64,000 bases of DNA. It comes from an uncultured Thermodesulfobacteriota bacterium (GTDB lineage Bacteria > Desulfobacterota > Desulfarculia > JACQYL01). A model generated the notes under the pieces. The model was not told where the DNA came from and did not search any database. It saw only the letters and a program-made list of their open reading frames with translations. The position numbers and the translations under genes were made by a program. Below are positions 26,466-54,762 of the stretch, in pieces; the first letter of the stretch is position 1; each line of letters begins with the position of its first letter. The stretch covers positions 6,099-70,098 of the forward strand of contig CAZQXK010000007.1 of assembly GCA_964597345.1 (NCBI GenBank). The letters run 5' to 3'.

Positions 26466-26615
26466 CAGGCCGGCGAAAAACGCGATCTGCGTCGTTGGGC
26501 TTCATCCTTCGTCCTTGCGGCGTACCGGTTGTACGCCTCATTCCTCAGGATTCGCCCGCCTTGCTTCTCATCGTTTTTCACCGGCCTGCCCGCAATACGT
26601 TTTATAAACGGGCTG
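26466..26615 (+). mobile_element. MITE-like structured repeat, copy 1 (orientation A, 150 bp)
   Basis: Fills the ftsA-ftsZ spacer. Ends CAGGCCGGCGAAAAACGCG ... CGTTTTATAAACGGGCTG form imperfect TIRs. Flanked by TTAT/TTAT; the right flank is the ftsA TAA stop. Confidence 0.75.
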
Positions 26616-27836
26616 TTATATGATTTCCTGGAACCAGCGTTTCATGCGGACCAGGAGCTTCTGAAGCAAATTCTTGTCCTTGGCGGCCAACTTCGGCGTC
26701 GGCTTGGCATGTTTCCCATACAAGACCAGGCCCACGCCGGTGGAATACATGGGATTGTTCACGATATCCACCAGGCCGCCGATGTTCCTGGGGTATCCGC
26801 AACGCACCGGCAGGTTGAATATCTGTTCGGCGACTTGAGCCATCCCCGGCAGGAGGGAGGAGCCGCCGGTGAGAACTACACCGGAAACCACCAGGTCTTC
26901 GAATCCCGAACGAATCATTTCCCTCTGGATCAAGGTGAAAAGCTCTTCCACCCTGGGCTCCAGGATTTCGCCCAGAATACGCCGCGAAATCTTGCGTCTG
27001 GGTCCCCCTCCCGCACTGGGCACTTCCAGGACTTCGTCCTTGTTGATCATGGATATGACGGCGCACCCGAAACGCTTCTTGATCTGCTCCGCCTCCGCCT
27101 CGGGCGTTCTTAGTCCCACGGCGATGTCGTGGGTGAGATTGTTTCCACCCAAGGCCAGCACGGACGTATGCCGGATGCTGCCCTCGGAAAAGATTGCCAG
27201 GTCCGTGGTACCGCCGCCGAAATCGATGAGAGCCACTCCCAGGTGACGCTCTTCGGGAGTCAAAACGGCTTCGGCGGAGGCGATGGGTTCCAGGACGATA
27301 TCGCATACATCCAGCCCTGCGCGATTGGCGCACTTGATGATATTGTGGGCTGAGGTAGCCGCCGCCGTCACAATATGAACACGGGCTTCCAAACGCACCC
27401 CCGCTATCCCGATAGGATCTTGGATACCCCCTTCATCGTCTACGATGAATTCCTGAGGAAGGATGTGGATGACCTCCCGGTCATTGGGAATGGCCACCGC
27501 CCTCGCCGTATCGATCACCCGATCCACATCGCCCTGCGTCACTTCCTTGCTCTTGATGGCGATGACCCCGATGCTGTTGAATCCACGAATATGTCCGCCG
27601 GCGATACCCGCATACACCTGGGTGATCTCGCACCCCGCCATGAGTTCCGCTTCCTCCACTGCTTTGCGGATGGACGTGACCGTGCTCTCGATATTGACCA
27701 CCACCCCTTTCCGCAGTCCCATGGAAGGATGAGATCCCATCCCGACGATGTTGACCCCTTTCTCGGACACCTCACCCACCACGGCGCAGATCTTGGTGGT
27801 TCCAATATCCAATCCGACAACGAGCCGGTTCTTCAT
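26616..27836 (-). CDS. ftsA: cell division protein FtsA
   Basis: MKNRLVVGLDIGTTKICAVVGE actin-like ATPase; overlaps ftsQ stop (ATGA). Confidence 0.95.
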   Translation of the reverse strand: MKNRLVVGLDIGTTKICAVVGEVSEKGVNIVGMGSHPSMGLRKGVVVNIESTVTSIRKAVEEAELMAGCEITQVYAGIAGGHIRGFNSIGVIAIKSKEVTQGDVDRVIDTARAVAIPNDREVIHILPQEFIVDDEGGIQDPIGIAGVRLEARVHIVTAAATSAHNIIKCANRAGLDVCDIVLEPIASAEAVLTPEERHLGVALIDFGGGTTDLAIFSEGSIRHTSVLALGGNNLTHDIAVGLRTPEAEAEQIKKRFGCAVISMINKDEVLEVPSAGGGPRRKISRRILGEILEPRVEELFTLIQREMIRSGFEDLVVSGVVLTGGSSLLPGMAQVAEQIFNLPVRCGYPRNIGGLVDIVNNPMYSTGVGLVLYGKHAKPTPKLAAKDKNLLQKLLVRMKRWFQEII

Positions 27837-28699
27837 ACGTGCTCCAGGTTCTTTCTTGGTCCGCGATAGGTAACGACCACCTGCTCTTCAAAGTCCAGAT
27901 CGATGGACTGGATGAGGTGCCAGTGTCCCCTCCGGTTCAAATCCTCCATGACTTCGGAGAGCCGGCGGAACTTGCCCGAATAATGGGTGGTTCCCAGCCG
28001 AATACGTACCTGGTCCCGGGTAAGCAGGGCCAGAGAACCTTCTCCTTCCACCTGGATCTCCGAAACCATGGCCGACTGAACCGGCGTCCGGTTGTGCTCG
28101 AGCAGATTCAGCAGCAGCAGAATCCGCTCTTTCATTTCGCTTTCCTGAAACAACCCGCCTTCAAACTTCTCGGCGCCCAGCCCGGTAATCACGGGATAGT
28201 TCAGGGAGTCTCCCCGCCGCACTTTCTGGAACGGTATTCCCTGATCGTCCAGATAATAAAGCTGCTGCAGGCTCAAAAGGGCCAGGGGTTTGCGCTCCCA
28301 GATACGAACCCAGAGTTCGTCGGGAAGCTCCCTCCGAACCAGAGCCTTGGAAACCCACGGTTCCGTCTCGATCCGGGCGGCCGTTTGCTGAAGATCCAGA
28401 GCGAGTACGCTGGTCCGGCTGTCCACGTTCATGAGTTGAATAACGTGCTGTTCCTCCAATTGTTCGCATCCCACGAGAGTGATTCCCCTGAGAAAGAAAT
28501 ACGGCGATCGGAGCACCCAGTCGTACAGGGTCAGAATGGAGACACTCGCCAGGAACCCGCCCAGGAGACAGCCGAGAACCCTCACGCAGAACGCCGTGGG
28601 CGGGATTCTCCTTCTTCCCCCGTTTCCCGCGGCAACATACCGGTTTCTCTTGAATCTCTTCGGCTTGGGAGGAATCATGGCGTCTCGTCCAACAACCAT
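27833..28699 (-). CDS. ftsQ: cell division protein FtsQ (POTRA)
   Basis: Single TM then POTRA/FtsQ domain; position between murB and ftsA. Start may be Met8 (28678). Confidence 0.8.
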   Translation of the reverse strand: MVVGRDAMIPPKPKRFKRNRYVAAGNGGRRRIPPTAFCVRVLGCLLGGFLASVSILTLYDWVLRSPYFFLRGITLVGCEQLEEQHVIQLMNVDSRTSVLALDLQQTAARIETEPWVSKALVRRELPDELWVRIWERKPLALLSLQQLYYLDDQGIPFQKVRRGDSLNYPVITGLGAEKFEGGLFQESEMKERILLLLNLLEHNRTPVQSAMVSEIQVEGEGSLALLTRDQVRIRLGTTHYSGKFRRLSEVMEDLNRRGHWHLIQSIDLDFEEQVVVTYRGPRKNLEHV

Positions 28700-29637
28700 T
28701 CCATTACACCGGTTTCGCCCAGCAACGTCACTTCAGGATGCAGAACCACGCCGAAGCGGCTCCGGACCGCCTGCCGTATCGAGCGCATCAGAGTCAGGAT
28801 ATCCGCCGCCGTGGCATCACCCCGGTTCAGGATGAAATTGGCGTGATCCCGGCTGACCATCGCTCCTCCCCGTCGCGTTCCCTTGAGTCCCGCCTCATCG
28901 ATCAGCCGGCCGGCGGACTGTTCCCCCGGATTCCTGAATACACATCCCGCCGAACGCGGATGTGTCGGCTGAGTATTCATCCGTTCCCTCAAGCGGCTCC
29001 GAATGTCCCGCCGAATGTGTTCGGACTTTCTGGGAAACACTTCGAATGCAGCCCGAAGAATCACGGAACCCGGAGGCAGATTCAGGTGTCGATACGCAAA
29101 AGACAGGTCCCGGCGGGGGACGCGTTCCACGACGCCGTCCGTTTTCATCCACTCCACCCACCGGGTGCGTTCCTCAACGGCTCCCCACCGCGTCCCCGCG
29201 TTCATGCACAAGCCTCCCCCCACCGAGCCCGGAATCCCCACGGCGAACTCGAAGCCTCCCAGACCCCGGCGCAGCAGTTGCCTTTGGAGAGCGGGAAGGG
29301 AAACCCCCGCTTCGACCTCACAGATCATGGGATCTCCAGGGTGCTCCCGCTCCTCGGGAATCAGGGTGGCGGAAAAACCGCCCCGAAGGGAAACGATCAC
29401 CCCCCGGAACCCGGCATCCGTCGCCAGGAGATTGGTCCCCCTTCCCAGGAAAAATACGGGAATTTCGTACTCCCGGGTCACATCCATAAGAAACCCGAGC
29501 TGACGCACATCCTTGGGAAACGCCAGGGCGTCCGCGGGCCCGCCCACACGGAAGCTTGTAAGCCGTTTCAGAGGCGCCCCGAACTGCACGCCTTCGCCTA
29601 AAGAGGTTTGCAGCAATTCCGTAACGCGGCGGTTCAT
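28675..29637 (-). CDS. murB: UDP-N-acetylenolpyruvoylglucosamine reductase
   Basis: FAD-binding PCMH domain (SFRVGGPAD) and MurB C-terminal domain. Confidence 0.9.
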   Translation of the reverse strand: MNRRVTELLQTSLGEGVQFGAPLKRLTSFRVGGPADALAFPKDVRQLGFLMDVTREYEIPVFFLGRGTNLLATDAGFRGVIVSLRGGFSATLIPEEREHPGDPMICEVEAGVSLPALQRQLLRRGLGGFEFAVGIPGSVGGGLCMNAGTRWGAVEERTRWVEWMKTDGVVERVPRRDLSFAYRHLNLPPGSVILRAAFEVFPRKSEHIRRDIRSRLRERMNTQPTHPRSAGCVFRNPGEQSAGRLIDEAGLKGTRRGGAMVSRDHANFILNRGDATAADILTLMRSIRQAVRSRFGVVLHPEVTLLGETGVMEWLLDETP

Positions 29638-31013
29638 CCCGATTGCTTTCCCTCAAGAAATTCCCGGGCCACCTCGTACACATTCCCCGCACCCAAGGTG
29701 AGCAGAAGGTCCCCCGGACGGCAGTGCGTTTTCACATGCCGGGCCACGTCTTCCAACCGTCCTATATAGCAAACATCCCGATGACCGTGTTCTCGGATAC
29801 CTTCGCTCAGACGTTTTCCGCTCACATCAGGAACAGGAGACTCTCCCGCCGGATAAATGTCCGTTATGACGAGATGATCCGCATGGTAGAAAGATTTTAC
29901 GAACTCGTCATAGAGAAACCGGGTACGGGTATACCGATGAGGCTGGAACACCACCACTACACGTCGCTGCTCCCAAGAATCGCGCACGGCTTTCAGGGTG
30001 GCCCGGATCTCTGTGGGATGGTGCCCGTAGTCGTCCATGACGAGGATGTCGTCCACGGTACCCAGCAGTTCCAGCCGGCGCCCCACCTGGCCCAGCTTGT
30101 CCAGACTGCGGGCCATCGCTTCGAAAGGGACATCCAACTCCAGGCCCACGGCCAAGGAGGCCAACGCATTGTATAAATTGTGGATGCCCGGGATATTCAG
30201 TTGCACCTGCCCCAGTTCCCGACCCTGATACTGCGCTTTGAAACGCGTGACGGTCCCCGCCGGCTGTACATCCGACGCCCGCAGGTCCGCCTGGGCCGTG
30301 AGGCCGTATGTGACCCGCCGGCGCTGGACATGCGGCAACAAGTCCTGCAGCCCCGGGTCGTCCAGACAAAGCACGTTCAATCCGTAGAAAGGCACCTTGT
30401 TGATGAACTGGAGAAAGGTGGACTTCACGTGATCCAGGTCCCGATAATAGTCCAGGTGCTCCGCATCCAAATTGGTTACCACGACGATAGCGGGAGACAG
30501 CCTCAAGAACGATCCATCGCTTTCATCCGCTTCCGCCACCATGATATCGCTTTGCCCCAAACGGGCGTTGCTGCCGAACGTGGACAGTCGGCCTCCGATC
30601 ACGACCGTGGGATCCAGTCCGGCATCCGTTAGAATCTGGCCCACCATACTGGTGGTCGTGGTCTTTCCATGGGCCCCCGCAACGGCGATACCGTGTTTGG
30701 TCCGCATCAGTTCGGAAAGCATTTCCGCTCGTTGAATGACCGGGATTTTCAGTTCCCGAGCCATCCGGACTTCCTCGTTCTCCTCATGAACCGCGGAAGA
30801 CACCACCACTACGTCCGCGCCTTGAATCTGTTCGGCGCGGTGTCCCAGAAACACGTGAGCCCCCAGGGACATGAGCCGCCGAACGAGGTCCGACGTCCGG
30901 ATATCGGATCCCTGCACGCGGTAGCCCTGATTGAGCAACACCTCGGCGATGCCGCTCATGCCCACGCCGCCGATACCTACAAAATGGATGTTTCGTATCT
31001 TGGTGCGTTTCAT
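29634..31013 (-). CDS. murC: UDP-N-acetylmuramate--L-alanine ligase
   Basis: MKRTKIRNIHFVGIGGVGMSGIAEVL; GKTTTTSM P-loop. Confidence 0.9.
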   Translation of the reverse strand: MKRTKIRNIHFVGIGGVGMSGIAEVLLNQGYRVQGSDIRTSDLVRRLMSLGAHVFLGHRAEQIQGADVVVVSSAVHEENEEVRMARELKIPVIQRAEMLSELMRTKHGIAVAGAHGKTTTTSMVGQILTDAGLDPTVVIGGRLSTFGSNARLGQSDIMVAEADESDGSFLRLSPAIVVVTNLDAEHLDYYRDLDHVKSTFLQFINKVPFYGLNVLCLDDPGLQDLLPHVQRRRVTYGLTAQADLRASDVQPAGTVTRFKAQYQGRELGQVQLNIPGIHNLYNALASLAVGLELDVPFEAMARSLDKLGQVGRRLELLGTVDDILVMDDYGHHPTEIRATLKAVRDSWEQRRVVVVFQPHRYTRTRFLYDEFVKSFYHADHLVITDIYPAGESPVPDVSGKRLSEGIREHGHRDVCYIGRLEDVARHVKTHCRPGDLLLTLGAGNVYEVAREFLEGKQSG

Positions 31014-32083
31014 GCTCGTATCACTTCCGCGCACACCGCCACGGCCTGAGCCGCAGCGTCCCGCCGGGAAAGGGTTCCGGCCCGTTCCCCCATGACCCTG
31101 AGTTCTTCCGGGCTCGAAATCAGCTCGGCGAGTTCACGGGCCAGGCGCTCCGGAGTCAGTTCGGATTCCAGGATCACTCGAGCCGCTTTCCGGACCTCCC
31201 ACACGCGGGCGTTCATTTCCTGATGGTTATGGGCCGCGTACGGATAGGGAATCAGTACGGCCCCACGCCCCACGGCGGCCAGTTCCGCCAGGATAGTGGC
31301 TCCGGCCCGCCCCACCACGAGGTCCGCTCTGGAAATCGCCGCGGCCATGTCATCGACAAACGGCGCCGTTTGCGCCGAGACCCCGGCGGATTCATAGTTT
31401 CGAGCCGTTTCCGTTTCCTCATCGGTCCCCGTCTGATGCAACACGGAAACCGGGTTCCCCGTTCGTTCGAGCAAGCCCAGCGCCGCAGGCGTCACCCGAT
31501 TGATCTTCCTGGAACCCTGACTTCCTCCGGTTACCAGCAGATGAATGCGCCCCGGTTCCCGGAGATCGGGACCGTGAAGGAACGATTCCCGCACCGGGTT
31601 TCCCACCACCCGCACCCGATCCCGAGGAAACCAGCCGGCGGATTCTTCGTAGGAACACAGAATCCTGTGCGCCAGCCGACCCAGCCATCGGTTGGTCATT
31701 CCGGGGCGCACATTCTGTTCCTGGATGACCAGGGGGATCCCCATCAGACGCGCCGCAACACCCATGGGTCCCGAGGAATATCCTCCCAGCCCGATGACCA
31801 GCGACGGTTTCAGCCGTCGAAGGAGCCACACGCTCTGCCCGATCCCGCGTAGCGCCCGGAACAATGAAACGGGCTTTCCCCAGAGTCCCTTGTCCGCCAA
31901 TCCGGCACCGTCGATGACGTGGTAGCCGTAACCCGTTCGCGGCAACACGCGTCGTTCCACCGGCCGCCCGGTCCCCACGAACACCGTTTCGACGGTTTGC
32001 AGGGTCCGCTCCAACGCTCCAGCCAGAGCCAACCCGGGGAAAAGATGACCTCCGGTCCCACCTCCCGCGAACACGATGCGCAT
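31010..32083 (-). CDS. murG: undecaprenyldiphospho-muramoylpentapeptide beta-N-acetylglucosaminyltransferase
   Basis: MRIVFAGGGTGGHLFPGLA; its ATG overlaps the ftsW TGA (ATGA). Confidence 0.9.
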   Translation of the reverse strand: MRIVFAGGGTGGHLFPGLALAGALERTLQTVETVFVGTGRPVERRVLPRTGYGYHVIDGAGLADKGLWGKPVSLFRALRGIGQSVWLLRRLKPSLVIGLGGYSSGPMGVAARLMGIPLVIQEQNVRPGMTNRWLGRLAHRILCSYEESAGWFPRDRVRVVGNPVRESFLHGPDLREPGRIHLLVTGGSQGSRKINRVTPAALGLLERTGNPVSVLHQTGTDEETETARNYESAGVSAQTAPFVDDMAAAISRADLVVGRAGATILAELAAVGRGAVLIPYPYAAHNHQEMNARVWEVRKAARVILESELTPERLARELAELISSPEELRVMGERAGTLSRRDAAAQAVAVCAEVIRA

Positions 32084-33216
32084 CACGTGGAACTCCGTCG
32101 ATTCAGGTACCGAATGTTGCACAGAATTCCCAGCATACTCAGACTCACCACCATGGAGGAACCTCCGTAACTGATGAACGGCAGCGGCAGGCCCTTGGTG
32201 GGAACCAATCCGAGGACGACAAACAAATTCAGGATCACCTGGGTACTGAGCAGTAAGGTAATGCCGAAAGCCAGTAAGGATCCGAAGGGGTCCAGAACGG
32301 ACCGGGCGATCTTCATGCCCCTCCAGAATATGAGCACGTATACGCCGGTGGTCAGCGCCACGCCCAGGAGTCCCATTTCCTCCCCCAGCACCGATAGTAT
32401 GAAGTCCGTGTGCGGCTCGGGAAGATAGAAGAGTTTCTGTTTACCGTCCCCTACTCCCACGCCCAGGATCCCGCCGGAACCGAAGGCCATGAACGAGTGA
32501 ATGATCTGAAATCCTCGATTCAGAGGATCCGCCCAGGGGTCCAGGAACGCCAGGAGACGGTCCAAGCGGTACGGTTCCACCAAAATGCTTACGGCCAGGA
32601 GCACCAGGCCGGCCAACGACGTGGCCGCCAGATGCATCAAACGAGCCCCGCCGACGAACAGCATCGCCACGGTTACCACCGTCAGCACCGCCACCGTGCC
32701 GAGGTCCTTCTGGGAAAGCACCAGAAGGACGACAATGCCCAGAAAAATCATGTGAGGTATGTATCCCGTGGCCAGGTCCCGAATCTGCTCCCCCTTTTTG
32801 CTTATGGAATAGGCCATGTACATGACCAACCCCACCTTGGCCGCTTCGGAAGGTTGAAACGACCATCCCAACACGTGAATCCATCTTCTGGCCCCACCCA
32901 CTTCGACCCCGAGTCCGGGGACGAATACCAGCAGCATCAAGCCGCAAACCCCAAAAAATATGGGGTACACCAACCGCCTGTAGACGCCGTAGGGCAGGTG
33001 CGAAAGGAAAATCAAGGCGCATATCCCGAGCCCCGCCGAAAAGGCCTGACGTTTCAAGAAGTAATAGGCGTCCCCATACTGTCTGGAGGCCAGAGCCGAA
33101 CTCGCGCTGAACACCATGACCAGGCCCAGACCCACTAATGCGCATACACTCAGAGCCAGTGCAGGGTCCAAAGGCGTCAGGACATTCCATCGGCGGAACC
33201 GGCTCACCGCGTCCAA
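32083..33216 (-). CDS. ftsW: lipid II flippase/peptidoglycan polymerase FtsW (SEDS)
   Basis: 10-TM SEDS protein with conserved FtsW/RodA motifs. Confidence 0.9.
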   Translation of the reverse strand: MDAVSRFRRWNVLTPLDPALALSVCALVGLGLVMVFSASSALASRQYGDAYYFLKRQAFSAGLGICALIFLSHLPYGVYRRLVYPIFFGVCGLMLLVFVPGLGVEVGGARRWIHVLGWSFQPSEAAKVGLVMYMAYSISKKGEQIRDLATGYIPHMIFLGIVVLLVLSQKDLGTVAVLTVVTVAMLFVGGARLMHLAATSLAGLVLLAVSILVEPYRLDRLLAFLDPWADPLNRGFQIIHSFMAFGSGGILGVGVGDGKQKLFYLPEPHTDFILSVLGEEMGLLGVALTTGVYVLIFWRGMKIARSVLDPFGSLLAFGITLLLSTQVILNLFVVLGLVPTKGLPLPFISYGGSSMVVSLSMLGILCNIRYLNRRSST

Positions 33217-33316
33217 TCCCCATCAGCATTGCCGAGGGGCCGGAGTACTCTTCTTCCGCCGCCCCCCCCGGCAACCTCGTTCTTTTTGGGGTTGTCATAC
33301 TTGGGTTGCATGCGTT

Positions 33317-34396: not shown

Positions 34397-34399
34397 GAA

Positions 34400-39661: not shown

Positions 39662-39664
39662 GGG

Positions 39665-41130: not shown

Positions 41131-41151
41131 GCTAAAAACGCTTTTGCAATC

Positions 41152-42153
41152 CTATCGGTTCTTTTTCTGAAATGTGGCCACGTATCGGTTGTGTTCGGCC
41201 AAAGTGCGGGAAAATCGGTGGGAACCGTCGTTGGCGGACACGAAGTACAGGAAGTCCGTATCCGCGGGGTTCAGCGCGGCCCGGATGGATGCTTCGCCGG
41301 GGGCTCCGATGGGGCCCACGGGAAGCCCCCGGCGTGTGTATGTATTGTACGGGGAATCCACGGTGAGGTGCGCCCGGGTGATCGGACCGTCGAAATCCTC
41401 CAGCCCGTACACCGCGGTGGGGTCGGACTGAAGGCGCATGCCCTTCCGGAGCCGGTTCCAGAACACGGAACTCACCAGCGCCCGTTCCCCGTCCAGTCCC
41501 GTCTCCTTCTCAATGAGCGAGGCCAGGGTCACGACTTCCCGGGGAGACAATCCCATCTCCCGGGAACGCTCCCGGTAGGCGTCAAACACTTTGCGCCACT
41601 GGTTCGCCATGGTCCGGACGACGAGGTATGGATCGGTCTTCCGCTCGAACAGATACGTTTCCGGAAAGAGATACCCTTCCAAGGTGGGACCGGGCACCCC
41701 GAGAGAGGACACGAAATCCGGATCACCCGCCGCATTCCGGAAGCCTTCCTCCGAAGTCACTCCCAGCAAGGCCAGTTGCCGCGAAATATCCCGGAGCGTC
41801 GAGCCCTCGGGAATGACCACCTTGACCCGATACACATCCCCCCGGAGGAACATGTCGAGCATGATCCCCGGACTAAGGTCCGGAGTGAGCCGGTATTCCC
41901 CCGCCTTGACGGACCGGGTCCGGTCCGTGGCCCGGGCGTATACATTCAGCTTCCAGGGGGAACGCAGCAACCCGAGATCCGCCAGCTCCCGGGTCACCGT
42001 GCTGAATCCCACGCCTTTCCGGATTTCCAGGAACACCGCATCCTGGCCGTTCCCGGCCGGAGTGTCCAGATAGGACCGCCAGTGCAGCCACACCAGGCAC
42101 AGGGACAGGATCGCCGCCAGCGCCGGCGGGAATCTTTTGCCGAAGCGCCTCAT
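41152..42153 (-). CDS. mltG: endolytic murein transglycosylase MltG (YceG-like)
   Basis: Starts MRRFGKRFPPALAAILSLCLVWL (N-terminal TM) followed by a YceG domain; the track's N-terminal extension is encoded by the MITE and is rejected. Confidence 0.85.
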   Translation of the reverse strand: MRRFGKRFPPALAAILSLCLVWLHWRSYLDTPAGNGQDAVFLEIRKGVGFSTVTRELADLGLLRSPWKLNVYARATDRTRSVKAGEYRLTPDLSPGIMLDMFLRGDVYRVKVVIPEGSTLRDISRQLALLGVTSEEGFRNAAGDPDFVSSLGVPGPTLEGYLFPETYLFERKTDPYLVVRTMANQWRKVFDAYRERSREMGLSPREVVTLASLIEKETGLDGERALVSSVFWNRLRKGMRLQSDPTAVYGLEDFDGPITRAHLTVDSPYNTYTRRGLPVGPIGAPGEASIRAALNPADTDFLYFVSANDGSHRFSRTLAEHNRYVATFQKKNR

Positions 42154-42155
42154 AT

Positions 42156-42329
42156 CAGTCCGTTGATAACCATGATTGCGTGCAGGCCGGTGCAAAACGA
42201 CGATATGCAAGCCACGCCTTTGACGTGGCGAATCCTGAGAAATGAGGCGTACATGCAGCACGCCCCAACGACCCGGGATGAAACCTCACGCCGAAGGCGT
42301 GAAAGCAGATCGCGTTTTTCAACGGCATG
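42156..42329 (-). mobile_element. MITE-like structured repeat, copy 2 (orientation B, 174 bp)
   Basis: Reverse complement aligns along its length with copy 1 and copy 6. Flanked by ATAT/ATAT. Begins 2 nt upstream of the mltG ATG. Confidence 0.75.
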
Positions 42330-42350
42330 ATATCCGTCCTCCTCCGCGTG

Positions 42351-43268
42351 TCAGCGCAAGGAAGCCACATACGCCGCCAGCCCGTCCGCCAACAGGCCGG
42401 CCATCATGAGCAGGCCCGTCACCAGGTGGGCCTTGATGGTCAGGGCCTGCACCGGCACCATACCCTTGTGGTCCCGGTACGTCCGGCCCAGCAGACGGAT
42501 CGCCTTGTAGGAAAGGGGAAACGCCCCCAGCGCCAGGAGAAACCAGGGCGTGTAGCGCTCCATGAAGGAAAACAGGATCACCGTGGGGTAAGGCAGGAGC
42601 ACCAGGACCGCATAAACATGCCGGCTCGCATCGAGACCCAGCCGAACCACCAGGTTGCGCTTGCCCGTATCCCGGTCGGCCTCGAAATCCGGGAACTGGT
42701 TGATCCAGATGACGGCCGTGATGAGATATCCGCTGGGGAACCCCAGCAGGAAGGCCCCGGCATCCAGCGCTCCGGTGATCGCCAGAAACGTTCCGAAAGT
42801 AAGGAACGGGCCGAAAGCCAGGAAGATGGTCAGTTCTCCGGCTCCCCGGCTCATGAGGCGCACGGGCTGGTAGGAATACAGCAGACCGGCAAGAAGCCCC
42901 AGAAGCCCCACCAGCAGGACCCCGCATCCCTTCCAGATTCCCAGAAGAATCCCCATAAGAACCGCGGTCCCGAAAAAAGCGAGACTCAATCGAAACACGG
43001 TGTTCCGGGACAGGCCGTGCTCCTGGATCACGCGGCTCCCGCCGCTGAAGGGCGTAATTCTCCGGTTGATCCGGTCCGTGCCCGGAGCGTCGTAGTAATC
43101 GTTGATCAAGTTGGCGGCCACGTGCAGGCAGGCCACGCCCACCGCGGCGAGCAGCAAGGGCAACGCCTCGAAACGGTCCAGGCGCCATGCGTACAAACCG
43201 GCCAGCGCCACGGGCGTCATGGAGCCCGTAAGAAAAGGAAGCCTGAGACCGATCCAAATGGGATGCAT
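42351..43268 (-). CDS. UbiA-family prenyltransferase, MenA-like (1,4-dihydroxy-2-naphthoate polyprenyltransferase)
   Basis: NDYYDAPGTDRINRR Asp-rich motif; 8-9 TM helices; start taken at MMHPIWIG (the track's N-terminal extension is low-complexity). Confidence 0.7.
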   Translation of the reverse strand: MHPIWIGLRLPFLTGSMTPVALAGLYAWRLDRFEALPLLLAAVGVACLHVAANLINDYYDAPGTDRINRRITPFSGGSRVIQEHGLSRNTVFRLSLAFFGTAVLMGILLGIWKGCGVLLVGLLGLLAGLLYSYQPVRLMSRGAGELTIFLAFGPFLTFGTFLAITGALDAGAFLLGFPSGYLITAVIWINQFPDFEADRDTGKRNLVVRLGLDASRHVYAVLVLLPYPTVILFSFMERYTPWFLLALGAFPLSYKAIRLLGRTYRDHKGMVPVQALTIKAHLVTGLLMMAGLLADGLAAYVASLR

Positions 43269-44149: not shown

Positions 44150-44174
44150 GGGAAAGGAAGCCTCCTCCGGGTGT

Positions 44175-44260
44175 CGGCCCGTCGATGCACCGTATTGCGG
44201 GCGGGCCGGTTAGAAACCATGTGATGAGGCGTACCGTACGCTGCAATGACGAAGATCGCC
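44175..44260 (-). mobile_element. MITE-like repeat, copy 3 (truncated, about 85 bp)
   Basis: Retains the 3' TIR region (CGGCCCGTCGATG..GCGGGCGGGCCGGTTAGAAACCATGTGATGAGGCGTAC) but lacks the remainder. Confidence 0.55.
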
Positions 44261-44311
44261 GTATAGAATGGTTAATTGCTGTATCACCCCAACGTTACTT
44301 GGACTTCAAGA

Positions 44312-45310: not shown

Positions 45311-45445
45311 CTTGGGTCCTTCCTAAGCCGTCACCAGGATGTTGTAGCTATGGAGGTTTACCTCAAGTATGCTGATTTCTCGCCGTTACGCAAGGCGTAG
45401 CTCAAGGGCGAAAAAAGATCCCGGCAAAAGGGTTCCCAGGCTTAA

Positions 45446-45629
45446 CAGCCCGTTGATGAAACTATTGGGGGCAGGCCGGTTGAAAACCATGTGATGCAAG
45501 CCACGCCTTCGGCGTAGCCGATCCTGAGGAATGAGGCGTACAACCCGTACGCCGCAATGACGAAGGATACAAGTTACGTCAAAGACGTGATCGGCGGGGT
45601 GAAAGCGGATCGCGGTTGTCGACGACCTG
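45446..45629 (-). mobile_element. MITE-like structured repeat, copy 4 (orientation B, 184 bp)
   Basis: CAGCCCGTTGATGAAAC ... GCGGATCGCGGTTGTCGACGACCTG; central core GGCGTACGGGTTGTACGCCTCATTCCTCAGGAT is identical to copies 1 and 6. Confidence 0.75.
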
Positions 45630-45726
45630 TCAGGCACACGTTTCCCGGTGTCTGCTCCATTCCGACATCATGAGATGCCTTGTAACCTATTTATATTACT
45701 TGGTATTTGTCTATTGTCAAACCCCG

Positions 45727-45755
45727 TTGACTTTGGGAAGCAGAGCATTTATTGT
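45727..45755 (+). promoter_or_regulatory. sigma70-like promoter TTGACT-17-TATTGT upstream of hicB
   Basis: In an AT-rich segment about 35 nt upstream of the hicB start. Confidence 0.3.
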
Positions 45756-45789
45756 GACTTAATGAGTTATTTTTTCAGGATATTTTGAC

Positions 45790-46026: not shown

Positions 46027-46072
46027 TCTGGTCCGATACCTGGAGCAGCATGGCCGGCGCGAGGATCAATAA
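46007..46072 (+). pseudogene. truncated/frameshifted hicA toxin remnant (21 codons)
   Basis: GTG-initiated frame overlapping the hicB stop reads MSVKQRDLVRYLEQHGRREDQ*. HicA proteins begin MKQRDLIK.LE..GW. The reading frame is lost right after the HG. Confidence 0.3.
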
Positions 46073-46129
46073 CCAGACTGCAGCCGACTTAAGGACAAGC
46101 ATGCTCGGGCGCCTCCGACGCAGCGCGGC

Positions 46130-47236: not shown

Positions 47237-47339
47237 GGGGATATTCGCTTTGTAGGGCCTAACACTCAGCTTAATCGGCCGGCATCGAGACACCAGCGGA
47301 AAGGCCGGTCCGAGTTGAAGCTGTGGTTACCCGGCTGCT

Positions 47340-47996: not shown

Positions 47997-48694
47997 ACGC
48001 CTCCTGACGGCCAACAATGCTTATATGAATTCTTTATAAAATCTATAGCCCACGAAACGCAGTCCGCACCTCGAAATCAGCCGTCTGGCTGCAGGAGGTT
48101 GTATCGTCGATAATGTCTCCAGCGGCTTGATATATAGTTCCGCATAACCTGCCGTGACTCTTCTCTATCGATCCTGCATGGGGCTTCGGACGTCCCGGCC
48201 CTTTCGGTTCCACGCGTGCAGGCACCTGACCGGCTTTTCCGGCATCTTCGCCGCCACGAGAACGGACAGCCTATGAGTACGGCCTCTTATCCAACCCCCC
48301 CTACAACAGCTCGCACGGCGGATTCAAGGTTTTTCTTGCGGAAAACGATCCTGTTCGGGGATACCGCCATTTCAGATGTCCCTCCTCCCCCTCCGATGCA
48401 AACCGGGCGCCCCGTATCTGCTCCTGCTTCGCCCTATCGAGGGCGGGGTACTCCGCAGGAAGCCGAGTGGCAATCCCGCCCGTGAATCTTGCGTGGAATC
48501 CATGAGAATCGGGAGAGTATGGGACATCCATGCACGATTCATGAGGTTACGCAAATGGAACACAACGATCACCGAAAAAGATTATCCTTGGTTCAAAATT
48601 CCCGGGAAGGCGCTTCGCAGCGAAACACAAGCCGCAGTGGGAGAGAAGTGTCGATCATCCTCGCGCCGGTGGATGACCTCGGATTTTCCAGTGG

Positions 48695-49168
48695 TCAGTC
48701 GTCCGCTGAAGAGTCTGGTTCCACGATTTTTTGCATGAGTTCAAACGTGATGCCGTGCTCCAAAAACAGCGGATGCTCGGGTGCGCGTCCCGGTGAAGGT
48801 TTAAATCCAACTTCTCTGAAAAAGTCCGCCGACGTGTTTCGCGCGATGGTATGAATCCTACGGCGCATGTTGGCCGAGGCGATACGTACCAGTTCCGTAA
48901 CCAGTCGGCGACCGACCGCTTTCCCCCGGGCACCGGAAGCGACGGCCAAATGTCTCAGCTCCATCTCGTCGCCGACCGTCGCTATTGGGACCAAGCCGCC
49001 CACGATCCGGCCGTCTTGTTTGGCCGCCAACTCGATTTCCTCGCCGTCGATATGGAACGTACTCCGGATATCACGGGGAAGCCCGAGAGGCCGCCATAGG
49101 ACGCTCCAGAGAAGGTCGTCCAGTTCCGCCGCGTCGGCCGCCGTTTTTACCCTCTCCACAGTGATCAT
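48695..49168 (-). CDS. GNAT family N-acetyltransferase
   Basis: RGKAVGRRLVTELVRIA acetyl-CoA binding motif. Confidence 0.8.
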   Translation of the reverse strand: MITVERVKTAADAAELDDLLWSVLWRPLGLPRDIRSTFHIDGEEIELAAKQDGRIVGGLVPIATVGDEMELRHLAVASGARGKAVGRRLVTELVRIASANMRRRIHTIARNTSADFFREVGFKPSPGRAPEHPLFLEHGITFELMQKIVEPDSSADD

Positions 49169-49174
49169 GTTCCC

Positions 49175-49654
49175 TTACCGTCTGTTCCCCGGACGCAGCG
49201 CCTTCTTCCCGGACCAGTACTTCAGGCGCTCTCCTCCGCCCACATCCAGAACACACTCCTCGAGAACTTCGTAGCCGAGACGTTCATAGAAGTGCTTTGA
49301 CGGCAAAGATAGGCTCAGGCTGACTTCCGGAATCCCCCGCTCCATCGCTTTGTGCTCAAGCTCCGCCATTATGGCTTTTCCATAGCCCCGCCCCTGACGA
49401 TCCGGACGCACAAAAACGCCGAGTATCTCCGAGTTCACCAATGAACCGGTAGCCAGGACAGCGTCGTCGCGCCGTGACAGGAGCACCAGTATGTCCCCGA
49501 TCAGACTTCGCTCCGCGATGTTCCTCTCGGAATGGTGTTCTTTAAAGAAAGCAACGGCGCGGGGAGGGTATACTTTCGAATAAGAAGCATCGATAGTCTC
49601 ACAAATCATACTATGAAGCGCATGCAGATCCGTCCTCTTGAATGCGCGAATCAT
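49175..49654 (-). CDS. GNAT family N-acetyltransferase
   Basis: Starts MIRAFKRTDLHALH; motif QGRGYGKAIMAELEHKA. The track's 31-aa N-terminal extension is encoded by MITE copy 5 and is rejected. Confidence 0.8.
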   Translation of the reverse strand: MIRAFKRTDLHALHSMICETIDASYSKVYPPRAVAFFKEHHSERNIAERSLIGDILVLLSRRDDAVLATGSLVNSEILGVFVRPDRQGRGYGKAIMAELEHKAMERGIPEVSLSLSLPSKHFYERLGYEVLEECVLDVGGGERLKYWSGKKALRPGNRR

Positions 49655-49691
49655 GGTTTTGCCTTCTTTCGTCGCTTTTTGCAGATGATCG

Positions 49692-49791
49692 CAGGCCGTT
49701 GAAAAGCGCGATCCGCCTTCACGGCCAAGGCCCGCCTTGCATCTCATCGTTTTTGACCGGCCCGCCCGCCATAAGCTTTATGAACGGGCCG
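49692..49791 (+). mobile_element. MITE-like repeat, copy 5 (internally deleted, about 100 bp)
   Basis: CAGGCCGTTGAAAAGCGCGATCCGCC ... CATCTCATCGTTTTTGACCGGCCCGCCCGCCATAAGCTTTATGAACGGGCCG. Both TIR regions are present; the central hairpin core is missing. Confidence 0.65.
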
Positions 49792-49825
49792 CCCAACAAC
49801 GTCCCCCCGGAAATAGAACCCCTGT

Positions 49826-51031
49826 CTATTCATGGCGCAACGCTTCGATGGGATCCAGCCGGGCCGCTTTGAGCGCCGGGAAGTAGCCGAAAATCACCCC
49901 GATGGCCGCCGAAAAAAAGAACGCGACCGCCACAATCCCGGCGTTGAAAACGAAAGGCACGCGCAACACGCCGGCAAGCCAGACCGACGAACCGAGGGCC
50001 AGGGCCATGCCGGCCAAGCCGCCCAAGGAAGACAGGACCACCGCCTCCACCAGAAATTGCAGGAGCACTTCCCGTTCGAGAGCGCCGATGGCGAGCCGGA
50101 TACCGATTTCCCGTGTGCGCTCGGTGACCGAAACCAGCATGATATTCATGATGCCGATCCCGCCCACCAGAAGGCTCACCGCGGCCACCGATCCCAGCAG
50201 GGCGGTCAGCACCCTGGTGGTCCCGGTAAGGGTTTTCGCGATCTCCTTCATGTCCATGACATTGAAATTGTCGTCCTCGCTGGGCGACACATGGCGGCGC
50301 TCGCGCATCAGCCGCTCGATTTCCTGCCGGACTCTCTCCGTGGACGCGTTTTCGCGGGCCGAAACCATGATCAGTCCAATGTCCTGATTTCCCGCAATAC
50401 GCCGCTGGAAAGTGCGGAGGGGGATCACCACCACATCGTCCTGATCCGTTCCCATACTGGTCTGACCTTTAGATTCCAACAGGCCGATTACCTCGCACGT
50501 GATCTTTTCCAGACGGATTGTGCTCCCCAGAACGTCCTGACTCCCAAAAAGCCTCCTGCGCACGGTCTCCCCCAAAATGCAGACCGCGGCGCCGGCGCGC
50601 AGCTCGCTGTCGGTGAACAGCCTGCCTGCTTCCAGGGACAAGTTCCGTACCTGGAAATACTCGTTTCGCGTTCCGGTGACCACGGTGGTCCAGTTGGCAT
50701 TGCCGTACACGGCCATAACGGAACGAGACGCGGCGGGGGCCACGGCCGCCACCGAGCGGATCTCCGCGGCGATGGCTTCGGCGTCCTTCGCCTTGAAGAG
50801 TGGAGCGGTGGATGCTTGGCCCGGACCCAAGCGCTTTCCCGGAGTCACCATCAACAGATTACTGCCCAACCCGGCAATCTGATTCGTGATCTGGACGGTG
50901 GCGCCTCCGCCGATGGTGACCATGGTAATCACCGCGCCCACCCCGATCACGATACCCAGCATGGTCAGGAAGGAACGCATCATATTGCGGCGGATCTCCC
51001 GTACGGCCAGTAGAATCGTGTTTCCGATCAC
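49826..51031 (-). CDS. MacB-like ABC transporter permease (FtsX domain)
   Basis: 401 aa, 4 TM with a large periplasmic domain; C-terminal FtsX motifs. Confidence 0.85.
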   Translation of the reverse strand: MIGNTILLAVREIRRNMMRSFLTMLGIVIGVGAVITMVTIGGGATVQITNQIAGLGSNLLMVTPGKRLGPGQASTAPLFKAKDAEAIAAEIRSVAAVAPAASRSVMAVYGNANWTTVVTGTRNEYFQVRNLSLEAGRLFTDSELRAGAAVCILGETVRRRLFGSQDVLGSTIRLEKITCEVIGLLESKGQTSMGTDQDDVVVIPLRTFQRRIAGNQDIGLIMVSARENASTERVRQEIERLMRERRHVSPSEDDNFNVMDMKEIAKTLTGTTRVLTALLGSVAAVSLLVGGIGIMNIMLVSVTERTREIGIRLAIGALEREVLLQFLVEAVVLSSLGGLAGMALALGSSVWLAGVLRVPFVFNAGIVAVAFFFSAAIGVIFGYFPALKAARLDPIEALRHE

Positions 51032-51768
51032 CGGGTTCCCCTTCCATTGTGCTCATCGGAGTCCACCAGACCGTCCATAAAAAGGACGGTGCGCCGGGCA
51101 TAGGCCGCCATGTCCCGCTCATGGGTGATCATGACGATGGTGATTCCGCCGCGGCGGTTCAAATCGATCAGCAACTCCATGATCTCCCTGCTGCGGGCCG
51201 TATCCAGATTGCCCGTGGGTTCGTCCGCCAGCAGCATTGCGGGTCCCGTGACGATGGCCCGGGCGATGGCGACCCGTTGTTGCTGGCCGCCCGAGAGTTC
51301 GCCGGGGGTATGGGTTTCCCATCCGCCGAGCCCCACCGTCTCCAGAGCTTGAAGGGCGCGGGCCCGTCGTTCCCCGGTCGGGGCGCCGCGATACACCAGG
51401 GGCAGTTCGACGTTCTCCAGAGCCGTGGTGCGGTTCAACAGGTTGAAACCCTGGAACACAAACCCCTGGTAATGGCGGCGGAGGAGCGCTCGTTGATTGC
51501 GGGTCAGTCCGCTCACCTCGACCCCCTTGAACCGGTAGGACCCTGCGGTAGGGCTGTCCAGACAACCCAGGATGTTCAGGAACGTGGACTTCCCCGACCC
51601 GCTCGGACCCATCACCGCCAAAAATTCGCCCTCGTTGATGATGAGATCGATTCCGCGCAGCGCCTCTACGGCTCCCTGCCCTTCCCCATAGACTTTGGTC
51701 ACTCCTTTAAACACAATCAGGGGCGACTCGGAGGGATGGTTTGCCGATTCGGGATTGCCCGTTTTCAT
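51028..51768 (-). CDS. ABC transporter ATP-binding protein (MacB/LolD-type)
   Basis: Starts at MKTGNPES; Walker A GPSGSGKST; signature LSGGQQQRVAIARA. Confidence 0.9.
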   Translation of the reverse strand: MKTGNPESANHPSESPLIVFKGVTKVYGEGQGAVEALRGIDLIINEGEFLAVMGPSGSGKSTFLNILGCLDSPTAGSYRFKGVEVSGLTRNQRALLRRHYQGFVFQGFNLLNRTTALENVELPLVYRGAPTGERRARALQALETVGLGGWETHTPGELSGGQQQRVAIARAIVTGPAMLLADEPTGNLDTARSREIMELLIDLNRRGGITIVMITHERDMAAYARRTVLFMDGLVDSDEHNGRGTR

Positions 51769-53051
51769 AGACCGGTCCCCACTGTGTCGATGATCACCGG
51801 CGTCCCGGCTTGGATGTCTCCGGCGGTTATTTCGGTCATAACGCCGTCCGTGGCTCCGATGCCGACAGGGACGGCGGAAGGTTTTCCCTCTTTCAACGTC
51901 CAAACGCGTTGTTCCGGCTTACCGCTTGTCGCCTCCTGCATCGATCTGGACGGCGACGCGGGCGGGCGCGGAAGCAAAGCGCCCACCAGGCCGTCGAACG
52001 ACTTCTCTGCTTGCTGCACCGGCGGGGTAAAGCGCAGGGCGGCGTTGGGAACCAACACCACGTTCTCGACTTTTTTGACCGTGATATCCGCGGTGGCCGT
52101 CATGCCGGGCCGCAGGGAGAGATCATGATTATCCACTTTCAGCACGGTTTCATAGGTTACCACGCCCTCCGCGGTCTTGGAGCCGTAACGGACCTGGGTG
52201 ATCCGCGCCTCGAAGATACGCCCCGGATAGGCGTCTATGCCGAACGTGGCCGTCTGCCCTTCCCTCACTTGACCTACGTCGGCCTCGTCCACATCGACAT
52301 GCAATTCCATCTGGGTCAAGTCTTCGGCCAGGGTGAAGAGCACCGGGGCCTGAAAGGACGCGGCCACGGTCTGGCCGGGTTCGGCGCTGCGGGCCAGGAC
52401 GACGCCGTTGATCGGGGACACGATGACGGACTTGGACAGGTCCGTTTCATGGGCTTCCAGAGTGGCGCGAGCCTGGGAGACCGCCGCTTTGGCGCTGACT
52501 TCATCAGCCCGGGCCCGCTCGAGCGCCGCCTCCGCCGCATCCATTTCGGATTGCGACGGCACTTTGTTCCCGCTTAACGCCCACGCCTTCCGGAGCTGTC
52601 CAAGTTTGCTGCGCATCTCCTTGACGGTGGCCTGGGCCTGCAAGACGGACGCTTCCGCCGATTCCAGGACCGCTTTGGATTGCATCACTTGAGCCTCCAG
52701 CTTCATGGTGTCGAGCGTCGCCAACGCCTGCCCGACCTTCACGTGGTCATTGTGGTCCACGGCCACGGTCTTGATGATGCCGGACAACTCGCTGCTCACA
52801 TCCACCTGGACGGTCGGCTGCAAGGCGCCGGTAGCCGTTACGATGAGTGTGAGATCTCCCGTCCGCGCTTCCCGGGTTTCATAGCGGACTTCCTTCGAGG
52901 CCCCCGTCATGTTCCAGATCACAACCACGGCCGTCACCCCCGCAATGAGAGCGACGAAAATCCATTTCCACGGTTTTTTTCCGTGCTCCGACGACTCCTC
53001 TATGTTCAGGACCCGTGCGACATCGGATACTCCGTCAGAGTTCGACTTCAT
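51765..53051 (-). CDS. efflux membrane fusion protein (HlyD/MacA family)
   Basis: TM anchor, lipoyl/barrel domains, coiled-coil hairpin. Confidence 0.85.
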   Translation of the reverse strand: MKSNSDGVSDVARVLNIEESSEHGKKPWKWIFVALIAGVTAVVVIWNMTGASKEVRYETREARTGDLTLIVTATGALQPTVQVDVSSELSGIIKTVAVDHNDHVKVGQALATLDTMKLEAQVMQSKAVLESAEASVLQAQATVKEMRSKLGQLRKAWALSGNKVPSQSEMDAAEAALERARADEVSAKAAVSQARATLEAHETDLSKSVIVSPINGVVLARSAEPGQTVAASFQAPVLFTLAEDLTQMELHVDVDEADVGQVREGQTATFGIDAYPGRIFEARITQVRYGSKTAEGVVTYETVLKVDNHDLSLRPGMTATADITVKKVENVVLVPNAALRFTPPVQQAEKSFDGLVGALLPRPPASPSRSMQEATSGKPEQRVWTLKEGKPSAVPVGIGATDGVMTEITAGDIQAGTPVIIDTVGTGL

Positions 53052-54526
53052 TTCTCCTCTCCACATGCAAACTGGTCCTGGGCTTCTTGAGCCCAAGACG
53101 TCCATCCGCCGCCCAGGGCCTTGTACAGGCCGATCAAGTTGGAAGCCGCCCTTCCGTCGCTTTGCGCCAGCTGATCCTGAAACGAGAAGAGCGAGCGCTG
53201 GGCATCCAGGACATGGATGAAATCGGTGAGTCCCGCCCGGTACTTTTCCCGTACAAGATCCGTCGCCCGCTGAGCCGCCCGGATCGTCTCGGTCAGGGAC
53301 TCCCTGAGACGCCGCTCCTCGGCGTACGCCACAATGGCGTTTTCCACCTCTTCCAGGGCATTCAATACGGCTGCTTCATAGGCGATCAGGTATTGCTCCT
53401 GCAGAGCCGATTGTACTTCGATATTCCGGCGCACCGCACCGGCGTCGAAAATCTTCCAGGTTAAGCCGGGACCCCCGCCGAGAAACGTGCTCCCGGACGA
53501 AACCAGGCTGCCGGCGGAAAAGGCCTCCAGTCCGATGGATCCGCTCAGTCTTAATTTGGGGTAGAGATCCGCCGCGGCCACACCGATCCTCGCCGTTTGA
53601 GCCGCCAGATCCCGTTCAGCCCGAAGCACATCGGGACGCCGCCGCAAGAGATCCGCAGGGACCCCGACGGCAACCTGCGGTGGAATGTCCGGGACCGGCA
53701 GATACGTCGCCAGTTCCCCATGTACCGCGCCCGGCGCTTCGCCCAGGAGCACGGCAATGCGGTTCATGCCCTGCTCCGCCCCGGCGCGCAGGTTCGGTAT
53801 TTGGGAACGCGTGTTCTCGAGGTTATAGCTGGCCTGCGCCACGTCCAGTTCATCGCCCAATCCCGCTTCGAACAGCCATACGGTCAACCGGTAGGTCTCA
53901 TCCTGAGCCTCCAGATTCGCTTCCGCAACAGCCCGCCGCGCCTGAAAAGTGCGGACTTCCACGTAATTCAGGGCCACTTCGGCGAGCAAGGAAACCAGGA
54001 CGTCGCGCCGTTCCTCCTGCATGGCCCCCAGATCCGCCTCCGCCGCCTCGACGGAGCGTCGGACCCCGCCGAAGATATCCAGCTCCCAGCCGGCATCCAT
54101 GCCGACGGTATAAAGACTGCCGGTCTTACCGCTCCCCGTCTCTTCACTGCCGCGATTCCGGACGGCGGAACCCGTGACGTCCAACGTGGGGAAACGGCCC
54201 GCCTGGGCGGTCCCACGACGAGCCCGCGCCTCACGAACCCGCGCCCCGGCTGTCTTCAAGTCCAGGTTACCCGCCGCCGCGCGTTCCATGAGACGGGAGA
54301 GTGCAGCATCGTCCAGTGTGGTCCACCAGGCCGCCAGGACCTCGGGATTCGTTTCCCGAGCCGTCAGACCTCCCTGGAGGGTCGCGTGCCAGTCTTTGGA
54401 CACCGATGTCCTGGGCGCCGCATAATCCGGGCCCACGGACGCGCACCCCGCGGCCAGTATGACGGCCATCCCCAGTGGGAGCCATGAAACGAATGCAAAG
54501 GAAGTTACGTTACGGGCGAATTCCAT
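53048..54526 (-). CDS. efflux outer membrane factor lipoprotein (TolC/NodT family)
   Basis: Lipobox ILAAGCAS; duplicated TolC repeats. Confidence 0.85.
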   Translation of the reverse strand: MEFARNVTSFAFVSWLPLGMAVILAAGCASVGPDYAAPRTSVSKDWHATLQGGLTARETNPEVLAAWWTTLDDAALSRLMERAAAGNLDLKTAGARVREARARRGTAQAGRFPTLDVTGSAVRNRGSEETGSGKTGSLYTVGMDAGWELDIFGGVRRSVEAAEADLGAMQEERRDVLVSLLAEVALNYVEVRTFQARRAVAEANLEAQDETYRLTVWLFEAGLGDELDVAQASYNLENTRSQIPNLRAGAEQGMNRIAVLLGEAPGAVHGELATYLPVPDIPPQVAVGVPADLLRRRPDVLRAERDLAAQTARIGVAAADLYPKLRLSGSIGLEAFSAGSLVSSGSTFLGGGPGLTWKIFDAGAVRRNIEVQSALQEQYLIAYEAAVLNALEEVENAIVAYAEERRLRESLTETIRAAQRATDLVREKYRAGLTDFIHVLDAQRSLFSFQDQLAQSDGRAASNLIGLYKALGGGWTSWAQEAQDQFACGEEK

Positions 54527-54600
54527 GAAGATATCCTATCGCAGACCGGTCCCTGCCTGCAAAACGGTGTATCAACGGGCTGACAGTCAGCGTTGATCAG

Positions 54601-54762
54601 CAGGCTGTTGAAGAACGCGGTCTGCTTTCACGCCTTTGGCGTGACGCTTCATCCTTCGTCCTTGCGGCGTACGGGTTGTACGCCTCATTCCTCAGGATTC
54701 ACGCGCCTTGCATCTCATCGTTTTTGGACAGCCTGTCCGAAATGCTGTTTTTCAAGGGGCTG
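54601..54762 (+). mobile_element. MITE-like structured repeat, copy 6 (orientation A, 162 bp)
   Basis: CAGGCTGTTGAAGAACGCGGTCTGC ... TTTTTCAAGGGGCTG. Its last about 63 nt encode the final 21 codons and the stop of the TetR gene. Confidence 0.75.

Follow-up and report, generated by a model that had tools for sequence, protein, structure and literature searches.

Short repeats at gene ends in a Thermodesulfobacteriota genome are very probably copies of a modular miniature transposable element

Introduction

Correia elements (CREE/NEMIS), known from Neisseria only, are small repeats of ~100-160 bp with inverted ends and a duplicated TA target; their intergenic copies lie in both orientations and are co-transcribed with neighbouring genes, giving a long stable RNA hairpin. 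Here we describe a family of 150-185 bp repeats from an uncultured Thermodesulfobacteriota bacterium, found in a stretch of 64,000 nt (GenBank assembly GCA_964597345.1, contig CAZQXK010000007.1, positions 6,099 to 70,098), the whole of which is called the window below. We consider it very probable that these repeats are copies of a small non-coding miniature transposable element with inverted repeats (MITE) that is mobilised in trans and lands at gene ends. The family has the size class, inverted ends, target duplication, long hairpin and many intergenic copies in both orientations of Correia elements; its ends, however, are unrelated, its duplications are of 4 or 6 bp, it has three arms, and it occurs in genomes labelled as two phyla.

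Other described systems offer partial parallels. Tn3-family ends are ~38 bp long, begin with GGGG and are associated with 5-bp duplications. The Tn3-derived inverted-repeat miniature elements (TIMEs) are described as non-autonomous, with common ends and possible mosaic or composite units of varied interior (PMC4133298). The window family shares with them its non-autonomous nature and common ends joined to varied interiors, but its arms do not begin with GGGG and its duplications are of 6 bp (arms of type A, see below) or 4 bp (type B). ERIC (IRU) sequences are ~127-bp imperfect palindromes in transcribed intergenic regions, present in both orientations, at times overlapping gene ends and with no known parent insertion sequence (IS) (PMC3184786, PMC2759123). 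They have no sequence relationship to the window family and lack the well-defined target duplication that it possesses. [quoted passage not shown] Chunjie and the window family are both MITEs of a 'deltaproteobacterial' host with operon locations and a stable hairpin, whereas 150-185 bp, arms of ~17 nt and duplications of 4 or 6 bp set the latter apart from Chunjie as described. The element works like Correia, ERIC or Chunjie, sharing neither ends nor duplication length with them (in the case of Chunjie, by its description). In the accessible literature we found no published description of this repeat family, with Chunjie, which differs, as the only named candidate; the window repeats apparently represent an undescribed superfamily in sulfate-reducing and related anaerobic bacteria.

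Results

Full-length copies share three arms and a core

An nhmmer profile built from the four full copies and run over the window returned them with E-values of 4.5e-47 to 1.2e-58. Copy 1 (26466-26615, plus strand, 150 bp; nhmmer 26463-26619, E = 4.5e-47) lies in the ftsA/ftsZ spacer, and copy 2 (42156-42329, minus strand, 174 bp; nhmmer 42151-42332, E = 1.2e-58) between a ubiA-like gene and mltG. Copy 3 occupies 45446-45629 (minus strand, 184 bp; nhmmer 45441-45632, E = 4.2e-54), and copy 4, at 54601-54762 (plus strand, 162 bp; nhmmer 54598-54767, E = 7.7e-53), sits between a tetR-family gene and an outer-membrane efflux (OEP) gene. Lengths thus span 150-184 bp in the window; across the wider superfamily they range from 61 to 371 bp. 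With two partial copies and three small fragments, the window holds nine in all. The six copies of a preliminary description, made from the letters alone, were all recovered (four full, one deleted, one truncated). Its estimate of 70-90% identity among full copies agrees with the 75-81% measured pairwise over aligned positions, and its statement that copies occur in both orientations with the strands of the nhmmer matches; a repeat scan likewise found the family on both window strands.

A full element consists of a left arm (L), a core and, on the right, a pair of arms (R1 and R2) that each repeat L in inverted form, all arms being ~17 nt. In copy 1, all on the plus strand, L is CAGGCCGGCGAAAAACG (26466-26482), the subterminal arm R1 is CGTTTTTCACCGGCCTG (26572-26588) and the terminal arm R2, which abuts the target duplication, is CGTTTTATAAACGGGCTG (26598-26615). 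L and R1 form an almost perfect inverted repeat, pairing at 16 of 17 positions in copy 1. The repeat between L and R2 is weaker: ungapped, 9-14 of 20 positions match in individual window copies, the consensus arms of the window lineage agree at 13 of 15, and L and R2 of locus L059 at 14 of 15. It is L and R2 that the flanking direct repeats adjoin, which makes R2 the actual right end of the element. The terminal inverted repeats proposed earlier therefore exist as inverted end arms, but as a set of three and not as a simple pair.

The conserved core of copy 1 (26504-26551, plus strand) comprises stem P1 (ATCCT/AGGAT), two conserved opposed segments, TCGTCCTTGC and TCATTCCTC, and stem P2 (GGCGTAC/GTACGCC) with the loop CGGTT. 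With the cores at 45521-45568 and 54651-54698 it shows 96-98% complementarity, and it is conserved at more than 100 loci. The core sequence and its GGCGTAC/GTACGCC hairpin had been recognised before and are legible in the copies; the second hairpin then reported, TTTCACGCC-TTYG-GGCGTGA, is an optional side hairpin, and the core of copy 2 bears such hairpins on both flanks. L and R1 enclose the core as a rod-like hairpin of ~130 nt, bracketed by A5 and T5 runs, and single-strand folding gives minimum free energies of -55 to -67 kcal/mol with z-scores of -4.4 to -8.5. If transcribed, this rod of ~130 nt, with its A-run on one side and T-run on the other, would be expected to act as a strong RNA hairpin, which might bear on the termination, stabilisation or processing of transcripts.

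Two arm types occur around one core

The core 21-mer GTACGCCTCATTYCTCAGGAT is present at more than 105 places among the matches listed for a species-representative genome collection. Record labels among these matches include Desulfobacterales, Syntrophales, Syntrophobacterales, Smithella and Desulfocapsa, the isolates Desulfosarcina variabilis and D. cetonica, and four Nitrospirae/Nitrospiraceae metagenome-assembled genomes (MAGs), so that the spread over two phyla is a matter of record titles. Many of the 21-mer matches lie at contig ends, as expected because the repeat is multi-copy. Full-length copies of the window type are found, among the matches listed, in one Syntrophobacteraceae MAG only (L007, L035, L074). 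Most copies elsewhere carry arms that we call type A, GAYGGCTTCGTAAAAAG...CTTTTTACGAGNNCRTC, around an unchanged core, the inverted ends being GAYGGCTTCGTAAAAAG and the reverse complement of CTTTTTACGAGNNCRTC. Type B arms (CAGGCYGTTGAAAAAC) belong to the window lineage and about a dozen others. Across lineages the core is better conserved than the arms.

Other genomes thus hold many additional copies, a check that the preliminary description had proposed, and none of the outcomes that it had named against itself came about. It is scarcely credible that the repeats derive from a duplicated gene or from faulty assembly: spurious open reading frames (ORFs) start within the copies and are all that speaks for a gene remnant, but loop length varies by 1-2 nt, stop codons stand within the arms and no frame is conserved, and against an artefact the family recurs in independent assemblies from many studies, isolate genomes included. 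The same three properties of the frame bear out the earlier statement that no plausible protein is encoded.

Target duplications and an empty site point to insertion

The 4-bp direct repeats claimed for two copies are present just as described. TTAT, read from the sequence, stands at 26462-26465 and 26616-26619 around copy 1, and ATAT at 42152-42155, next to the R2 end, and 42330-42333, next to the L end, of copy 2. Larger samples gave a distinct duplication for each arm type, 4 bp with type B and 6 bp (AANNTT) with type A. Among type A copies, 23 of 34 are flanked by exact direct repeats, 5 bp or longer and in fixed register, against 2.6% in a mismatched-flank control. In an independent metagenome sample a perfect 6-bp repeat abuts GAYGG...CRTC in 32 of 85 (control 1.5%); its logo, A30 A21 N N T27 T31 of 32, is the palindromic AANNTT, and two neighbouring elements in L145 have the duplications AAACTT and AAAGTT. 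For type B, perfect 4-bp repeats (TTAT, ATAT, CTAA, TTAA) occur in four of 16 copies, both window cases included, and three of the four positions match in six more. The duplicated site is AT-rich, of the form Y-T-A/G-R, and often a stop codon.

Contigs of relatives allow sites with and without the element to be compared. In four contigs whose FtsA is ~84% identical, the ftsA-ftsZ spacer measures 38-40 nt and contains no element. In a contig with 99% identity (L106 11222-11347) the copy is present, with a 23-nt deletion fusing R2 to R1 that looks like the product of recombination between the two similar arms. The orthologue of copy 2, in contigs with a 95% identical MltG, keeps its place, its ATAT flanks and its arms, while the left core and side hairpins have been replaced by unrelated sequence (L239 600-910 and L240 400-710, against window 42120-42400); judging by these alignments, the interior of the element changes at a far higher rate than the genes around it. 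No second empty site came to light upstream of mltG, where the 95% relatives share the insertion and so are uninformative on mobility.

The empty ftsA-ftsZ site and the target duplications argue for insertion and against vertically inherited regulatory sites or bidirectional terminators fixed in place, which we regard as most unlikely. The long hairpin between its A5 and T5 runs would suit such a role, and the two runs bracket it as in an intrinsic terminator, but a simple consensus terminator scan, whose limit the loop exceeds, makes no call. Neighbouring genes are, moreover, unrelated from one locus to the next, and a strong terminator between ftsA and ftsZ would presumably be costly. As read from the alignments, the duplications, the empty site and the decayed orthologue show insertion by staggered cut followed by neutral decay, with which the 75-81% identity of the window copies agrees. 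These copies are probably old and decaying, and the family is probably no longer active in the source genome. Small size, lack of coding capacity, inverted ends, duplications of fixed length, dispersed copies and insertion polymorphism are the features of a MITE, and the arms, target duplications, empty site, further copies and absence of coding capacity uphold the non-autonomous transposable element named in the preliminary description.

Insertions are concentrated at the very end of genes

The window has a G+C content of 58%, and its minus strand carries the dcw (cell-division and cell-wall) gene cluster. By Pfam, the neighbours are ftsA and ftsZ for copy 1, a UbiA-family gene and mltG (YceG) for copy 2, and TetR-family and outer-membrane efflux genes for copy 4. 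The copies had been placed in gene-poor spacers; they in fact occupy short gaps within dense same-strand gene arrays. The TAA stop codon of ftsA (26618-26616, minus strand) lies inside the TTAT/ATAA duplication at 26616-26619, and the ATAT at 42152-42155, beside copy 2, shares bases with the start codon of mltG (ATG, 42153-42151, minus strand), whose 333-aa gene call is confirmed by an identical database protein. The R2 end of copy 2 is now the 5' leader of mltG, including whatever serves as its ribosome-binding site. The closest FtsA proteins come from records labelled as Deltaproteobacteria, Syntrophobacteria or Thermodesulfobacteriota MAGs.

The same placement was seen on a larger scale. 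On the L side of type A elements, 28 upstream ORFs of 120 codons or more were examined; 15 of them end precisely at the arm TGA, formed by the base preceding the element and the element's first two bases, and seven more stop at most 12 nt upstream. In the metagenome sample, 10 of 36 upstream ORFs stop at this TGA and 10 more within 8 nt, so that with both samples pooled the arm supplies the stop codon of the upstream gene in 25 of 64. Among 22 copies whose duplication is clear, 10 have TAA, TAG or TGA directly after the right-hand repeat, and this triplet is the original stop codon; insertion thus often lands on the first base of the stop codon and regenerates a stop. Most type B flanks consist of a pyrimidine and, after it, a stop triplet. 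Insertions are therefore concentrated at the very end of genes, and the upstream frame still stops at once because the arms read TGA and TAA inwards. This placement may reflect target preference, selection or both.

Mosaic extragenic palindromes just 3' of stop codons are also seen in REP/BIME sequences, which have 20-40-nt units, depend on Y1 (RAYT) transposases and do not duplicate their target. The window family shares with them its extragenic palindromes near stop codons and its mosaic build, and its many copies are likewise intergenic. That it consists of REP/BIME-type palindromes spread by a RAYT (Y1, IS200-like) transposase is nonetheless very improbable: its units are, at 150-185 bp, much longer, with inverted ends and 4- or 6-bp duplications, and we saw neither a head motif of the GTAG type nor a Y1 transposase gene adjoining any copy. 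Integron attC sites were rejected on inspection, the ends being a misfit to RYYYAAC/GTTRRRY and the neighbours housekeeping dcw genes, not cassettes.

Shared arms carry interchangeable interiors

A metagenome scan that required a type A arm and excluded the standard core yielded at least 120 loci. Unrelated interiors were found on the type A arm: palindromes of the GTCAYYCCCGCGAAAGCGGG type, palindromes of the GTCATTGCGAGCGAAGCGCGGCAATC type, deletion derivatives, and a CGTTCGACA...GAAGGGC module, in some cases expanded in tandem. Coreless elements with the same arms still show target duplication, which makes the arms the part on which movement depends. On these comparisons the core behaves as an exchangeable module, found with both arm types, and not as the part bound by a transposase, and the superfamily is modular, with shared ends and interchangeable palindromic interiors.

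Several nested inserts were observed in addition. A second element of ~105 nt, with inverted ends CCCTGTTAAAT...ATTTAACAGGG, is nested in the core between CATCC and TCAYTGC in L089 (1046-1150, minus strand), and the same junction recurs in L019, L029, L046, L006, L016, L001 and L072; the composite carrying it seems, from this shared junction, to have spread as a subfamily. Other short palindromic inserts fill the same core site in L034, L069, L073 and L087. The CGTTCGACA...GAAGGGC module, 39 nt long, stands in the L-side stem without duplication in L013, L024, L159, L160, L170, L173, L175 and L225. Further interiors on the same arms are the palindromes GTCATTCC...GGAATGAC and GTCATTGCGAG...CGCAATGAC (L061 1716-1880, and many metagenome loci within L119-L238). 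These resemble widespread repeats from which spurious short peptides arise when metagenomes are annotated, and the link to a transposon backbone may explain how they spread.

Signs of structural constraint in the core

Pairing within the core was assessed on a sample drawn without regard to the core motif. Of its cells, 86.8% agree with the proposed pairing, and 11 cells are changed on both sides, a number reached by none of 500 shuffles; the covariation score is 0.088 vs 0.063. In P1 a C-G pair became T-A six times and a T-A pair C-G twice, and elsewhere in the core one A-T pair became G-C six times, although the core copies are related by descent and these counts are not of independent events. 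A structural constraint on the core is visible. Six conserved opposed positions are pyrimidine-pyrimidine on the strand given in the preliminary description, and three tandem G.A motifs are predicted on the other, reverse strand. In 121 of 130 cores it is this reverse strand that gives the better fold, and at variable sites A.C oppositions, which are G.U on the reverse strand, outnumber G.T by 166 to 44. One invariant G.T goes the opposite way, however, and total pairing is equal on both strands (86.8% vs 86.1%). The strand asymmetry is suggestive, a lead and not a finding; a symmetric constraint on double-stranded DNA may account for the core pattern instead.

It could be asked whether the repeats are primarily structured-RNA genes or cis-elements (small RNA, protein sponge, terminator or stabiliser) whose spread is secondary. 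The conservation of the core beyond that of the arms, the compensatory changes with their double-sided cells, the predicted G.A motifs and the better folding of the reverse strand would all fit this, yet we consider it quite unlikely. Rfam at gathering thresholds reports only a tRNA-Ser over the whole window, and at E up to 1 it gives no relevant match in the three copy-bearing loci. Elements are inserted in both orientations, 30 being co-directional with their neighbouring genes, 17 opposite, 13 divergent and 12 convergent; this mixture makes a gene-specific regulatory RNA unlikely, and it is the forward strand, the less stable of the two, that would be found more often in mRNAs (30 vs 17). 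The left half of the core, moreover, is lost from the orthologous copy in the 95% relatives, coreless elements with the same arms still show target duplications, strand pairing is equal once the invariant G.T is counted, and the copies share descent. For the structured small RNA that the preliminary description had offered as an alternative identity, the two orientations, the lack of an Rfam match and the half-lost core leave no support as the primary one.

A narrower and still rather doubtful proposal is that the core of ~75 nt is a strand-specific structured module, an unbroken helix with three tandem G.A motifs (on the ATCCTGAGGAATGAGGCGTAC...GTACGCCGCARTGACGAAGGAT strand), carried in genomes labelled as two phyla on at least two transposon backbones that differ in arms and in duplication length, and kept for a function. 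If so, it might for example bind a protein or shape the fate of transcripts at gene ends, and it would be a structured module spreading by hitch-hiking on transposons. By eye, hammerhead-like CUGANGA, kink-turn and CsrA-site (AAGGAUG) motifs in the core were discarded for unfit spacing or register, as was a small-peptide reading, the loop length not being a multiple of three. Nothing convincing as an internal sigma-70-type promoter was found by eye or by scan.

Mobilisation in trans and the search for a transposase

We propose that the element was moved in trans by a putative transposase encoded elsewhere, which would be of the DDE type, would bind the arms and would make staggered cuts. As leads to its identity, and not as tests, ISNCY/ISDol1-group elements leave 6-7-bp duplications, IS5-group elements use a YTAR target, and the IS903 end GGCTTTGTTGAATAAATCG resembles the type B arm. 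ISDol1 is named in the literature that we found, where its end sequences are not given.

A number of observations weigh against a MITE mobilised in trans. No arm pair enclosing a transposase was found in ~1.6 Mb of loci, and Pfam scans of the genes adjoining the window copies showed none there. An intact duplication is missing in two of the four full window copies, copies 3 and 4 having the flanks CTGA / TTAA and TCAG / TTAG. The evidence for a type B duplication is thin at four perfect cases of 16, and a preference of the two flanks for one and the same AT-rich motif makes chance matches likelier than 1 in 256. Ordinary MITEs are best conserved at their ends, whereas here it is the core, which a plain IS deletion derivative does not explain. 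Further searches for the partner were also negative: no transposase was found with lone arms or arm pairs more than 400 bp apart within loci, in long repeats common to several loci, in ORFs downstream of solo arms, or by blastn of the whole element against a plasmid collection. In viral contigs the type A arm pattern found only more MITEs and the type B pattern chance matches, with no transposase, and the core-excluding metagenome scan gave many other interiors but no IS. Set against the fixed-register duplications and the empty site, these points leave mobilisation in trans of a small MITE as the reading that we hold to be very probable.

Implications for assembly and annotation

The mechanism is ordinary; we see the noteworthy part in the breadth of the family, its modular build and its placement at stop codons. 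The elements appear to break assemblies of sediment and groundwater anaerobes, as judged from the many matches at contig ends. In annotation they seed spurious ORFs, supply the stop codon of a real gene (25 of 64) and in one window case abut a start codon, and a family model would better gene calls in Thermodesulfobacteriota and Nitrospirota MAGs. The superfamily also provides a clean natural case of modular MITEs. Insertion at a stop codon without change to the protein may explain how they persist in essential operons such as the dcw cluster.

Partial copies and other observations in the window

Of the two partial copies, the internally deleted one (49692-49791, plus strand; nhmmer 49691-49724 and 49721-49789) has no core, its L arm being fused to the R1-R2 part, and sits between genes for a GNAT acetyltransferase and a MacB-type permease. 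The truncated copy (44174-44260, minus strand; nhmmer 44174-44254, E = 1.3e-08) retains part of the core with R1 and R2 and has no L arm. Three fragments are new to the list. An L-type arm (CAGACTGTTGAAAAAGGCGATGCGC) with a side hairpin lies at 59531-59590 (minus strand; nhmmer 59531-59588, E = 1.1e-05), a solo R2-like arm at 54552-54585 (plus strand), 16 bp upstream of copy 4, is a weak match (E = 6.6e-03), and a possible degenerate core remnant, also weak, at 63773-63834 (minus strand) has E = 4.7e-04.

Two further regions of the window deserve mention. Four tandem paralogous genes (repeat families D1 and D5) at 16781-18281 have in common a hydrophobic N-terminus of the prepilin type, and we take them for a pseudopilin cluster because homologous genes in L107 carry Pfam N_methyl and T2SSG matches. 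At 5543-6972 there are two minus-strand ORFs whose G+C at third positions is 0.41-0.45, where most other genes have ~0.7, and these may be foreign DNA.

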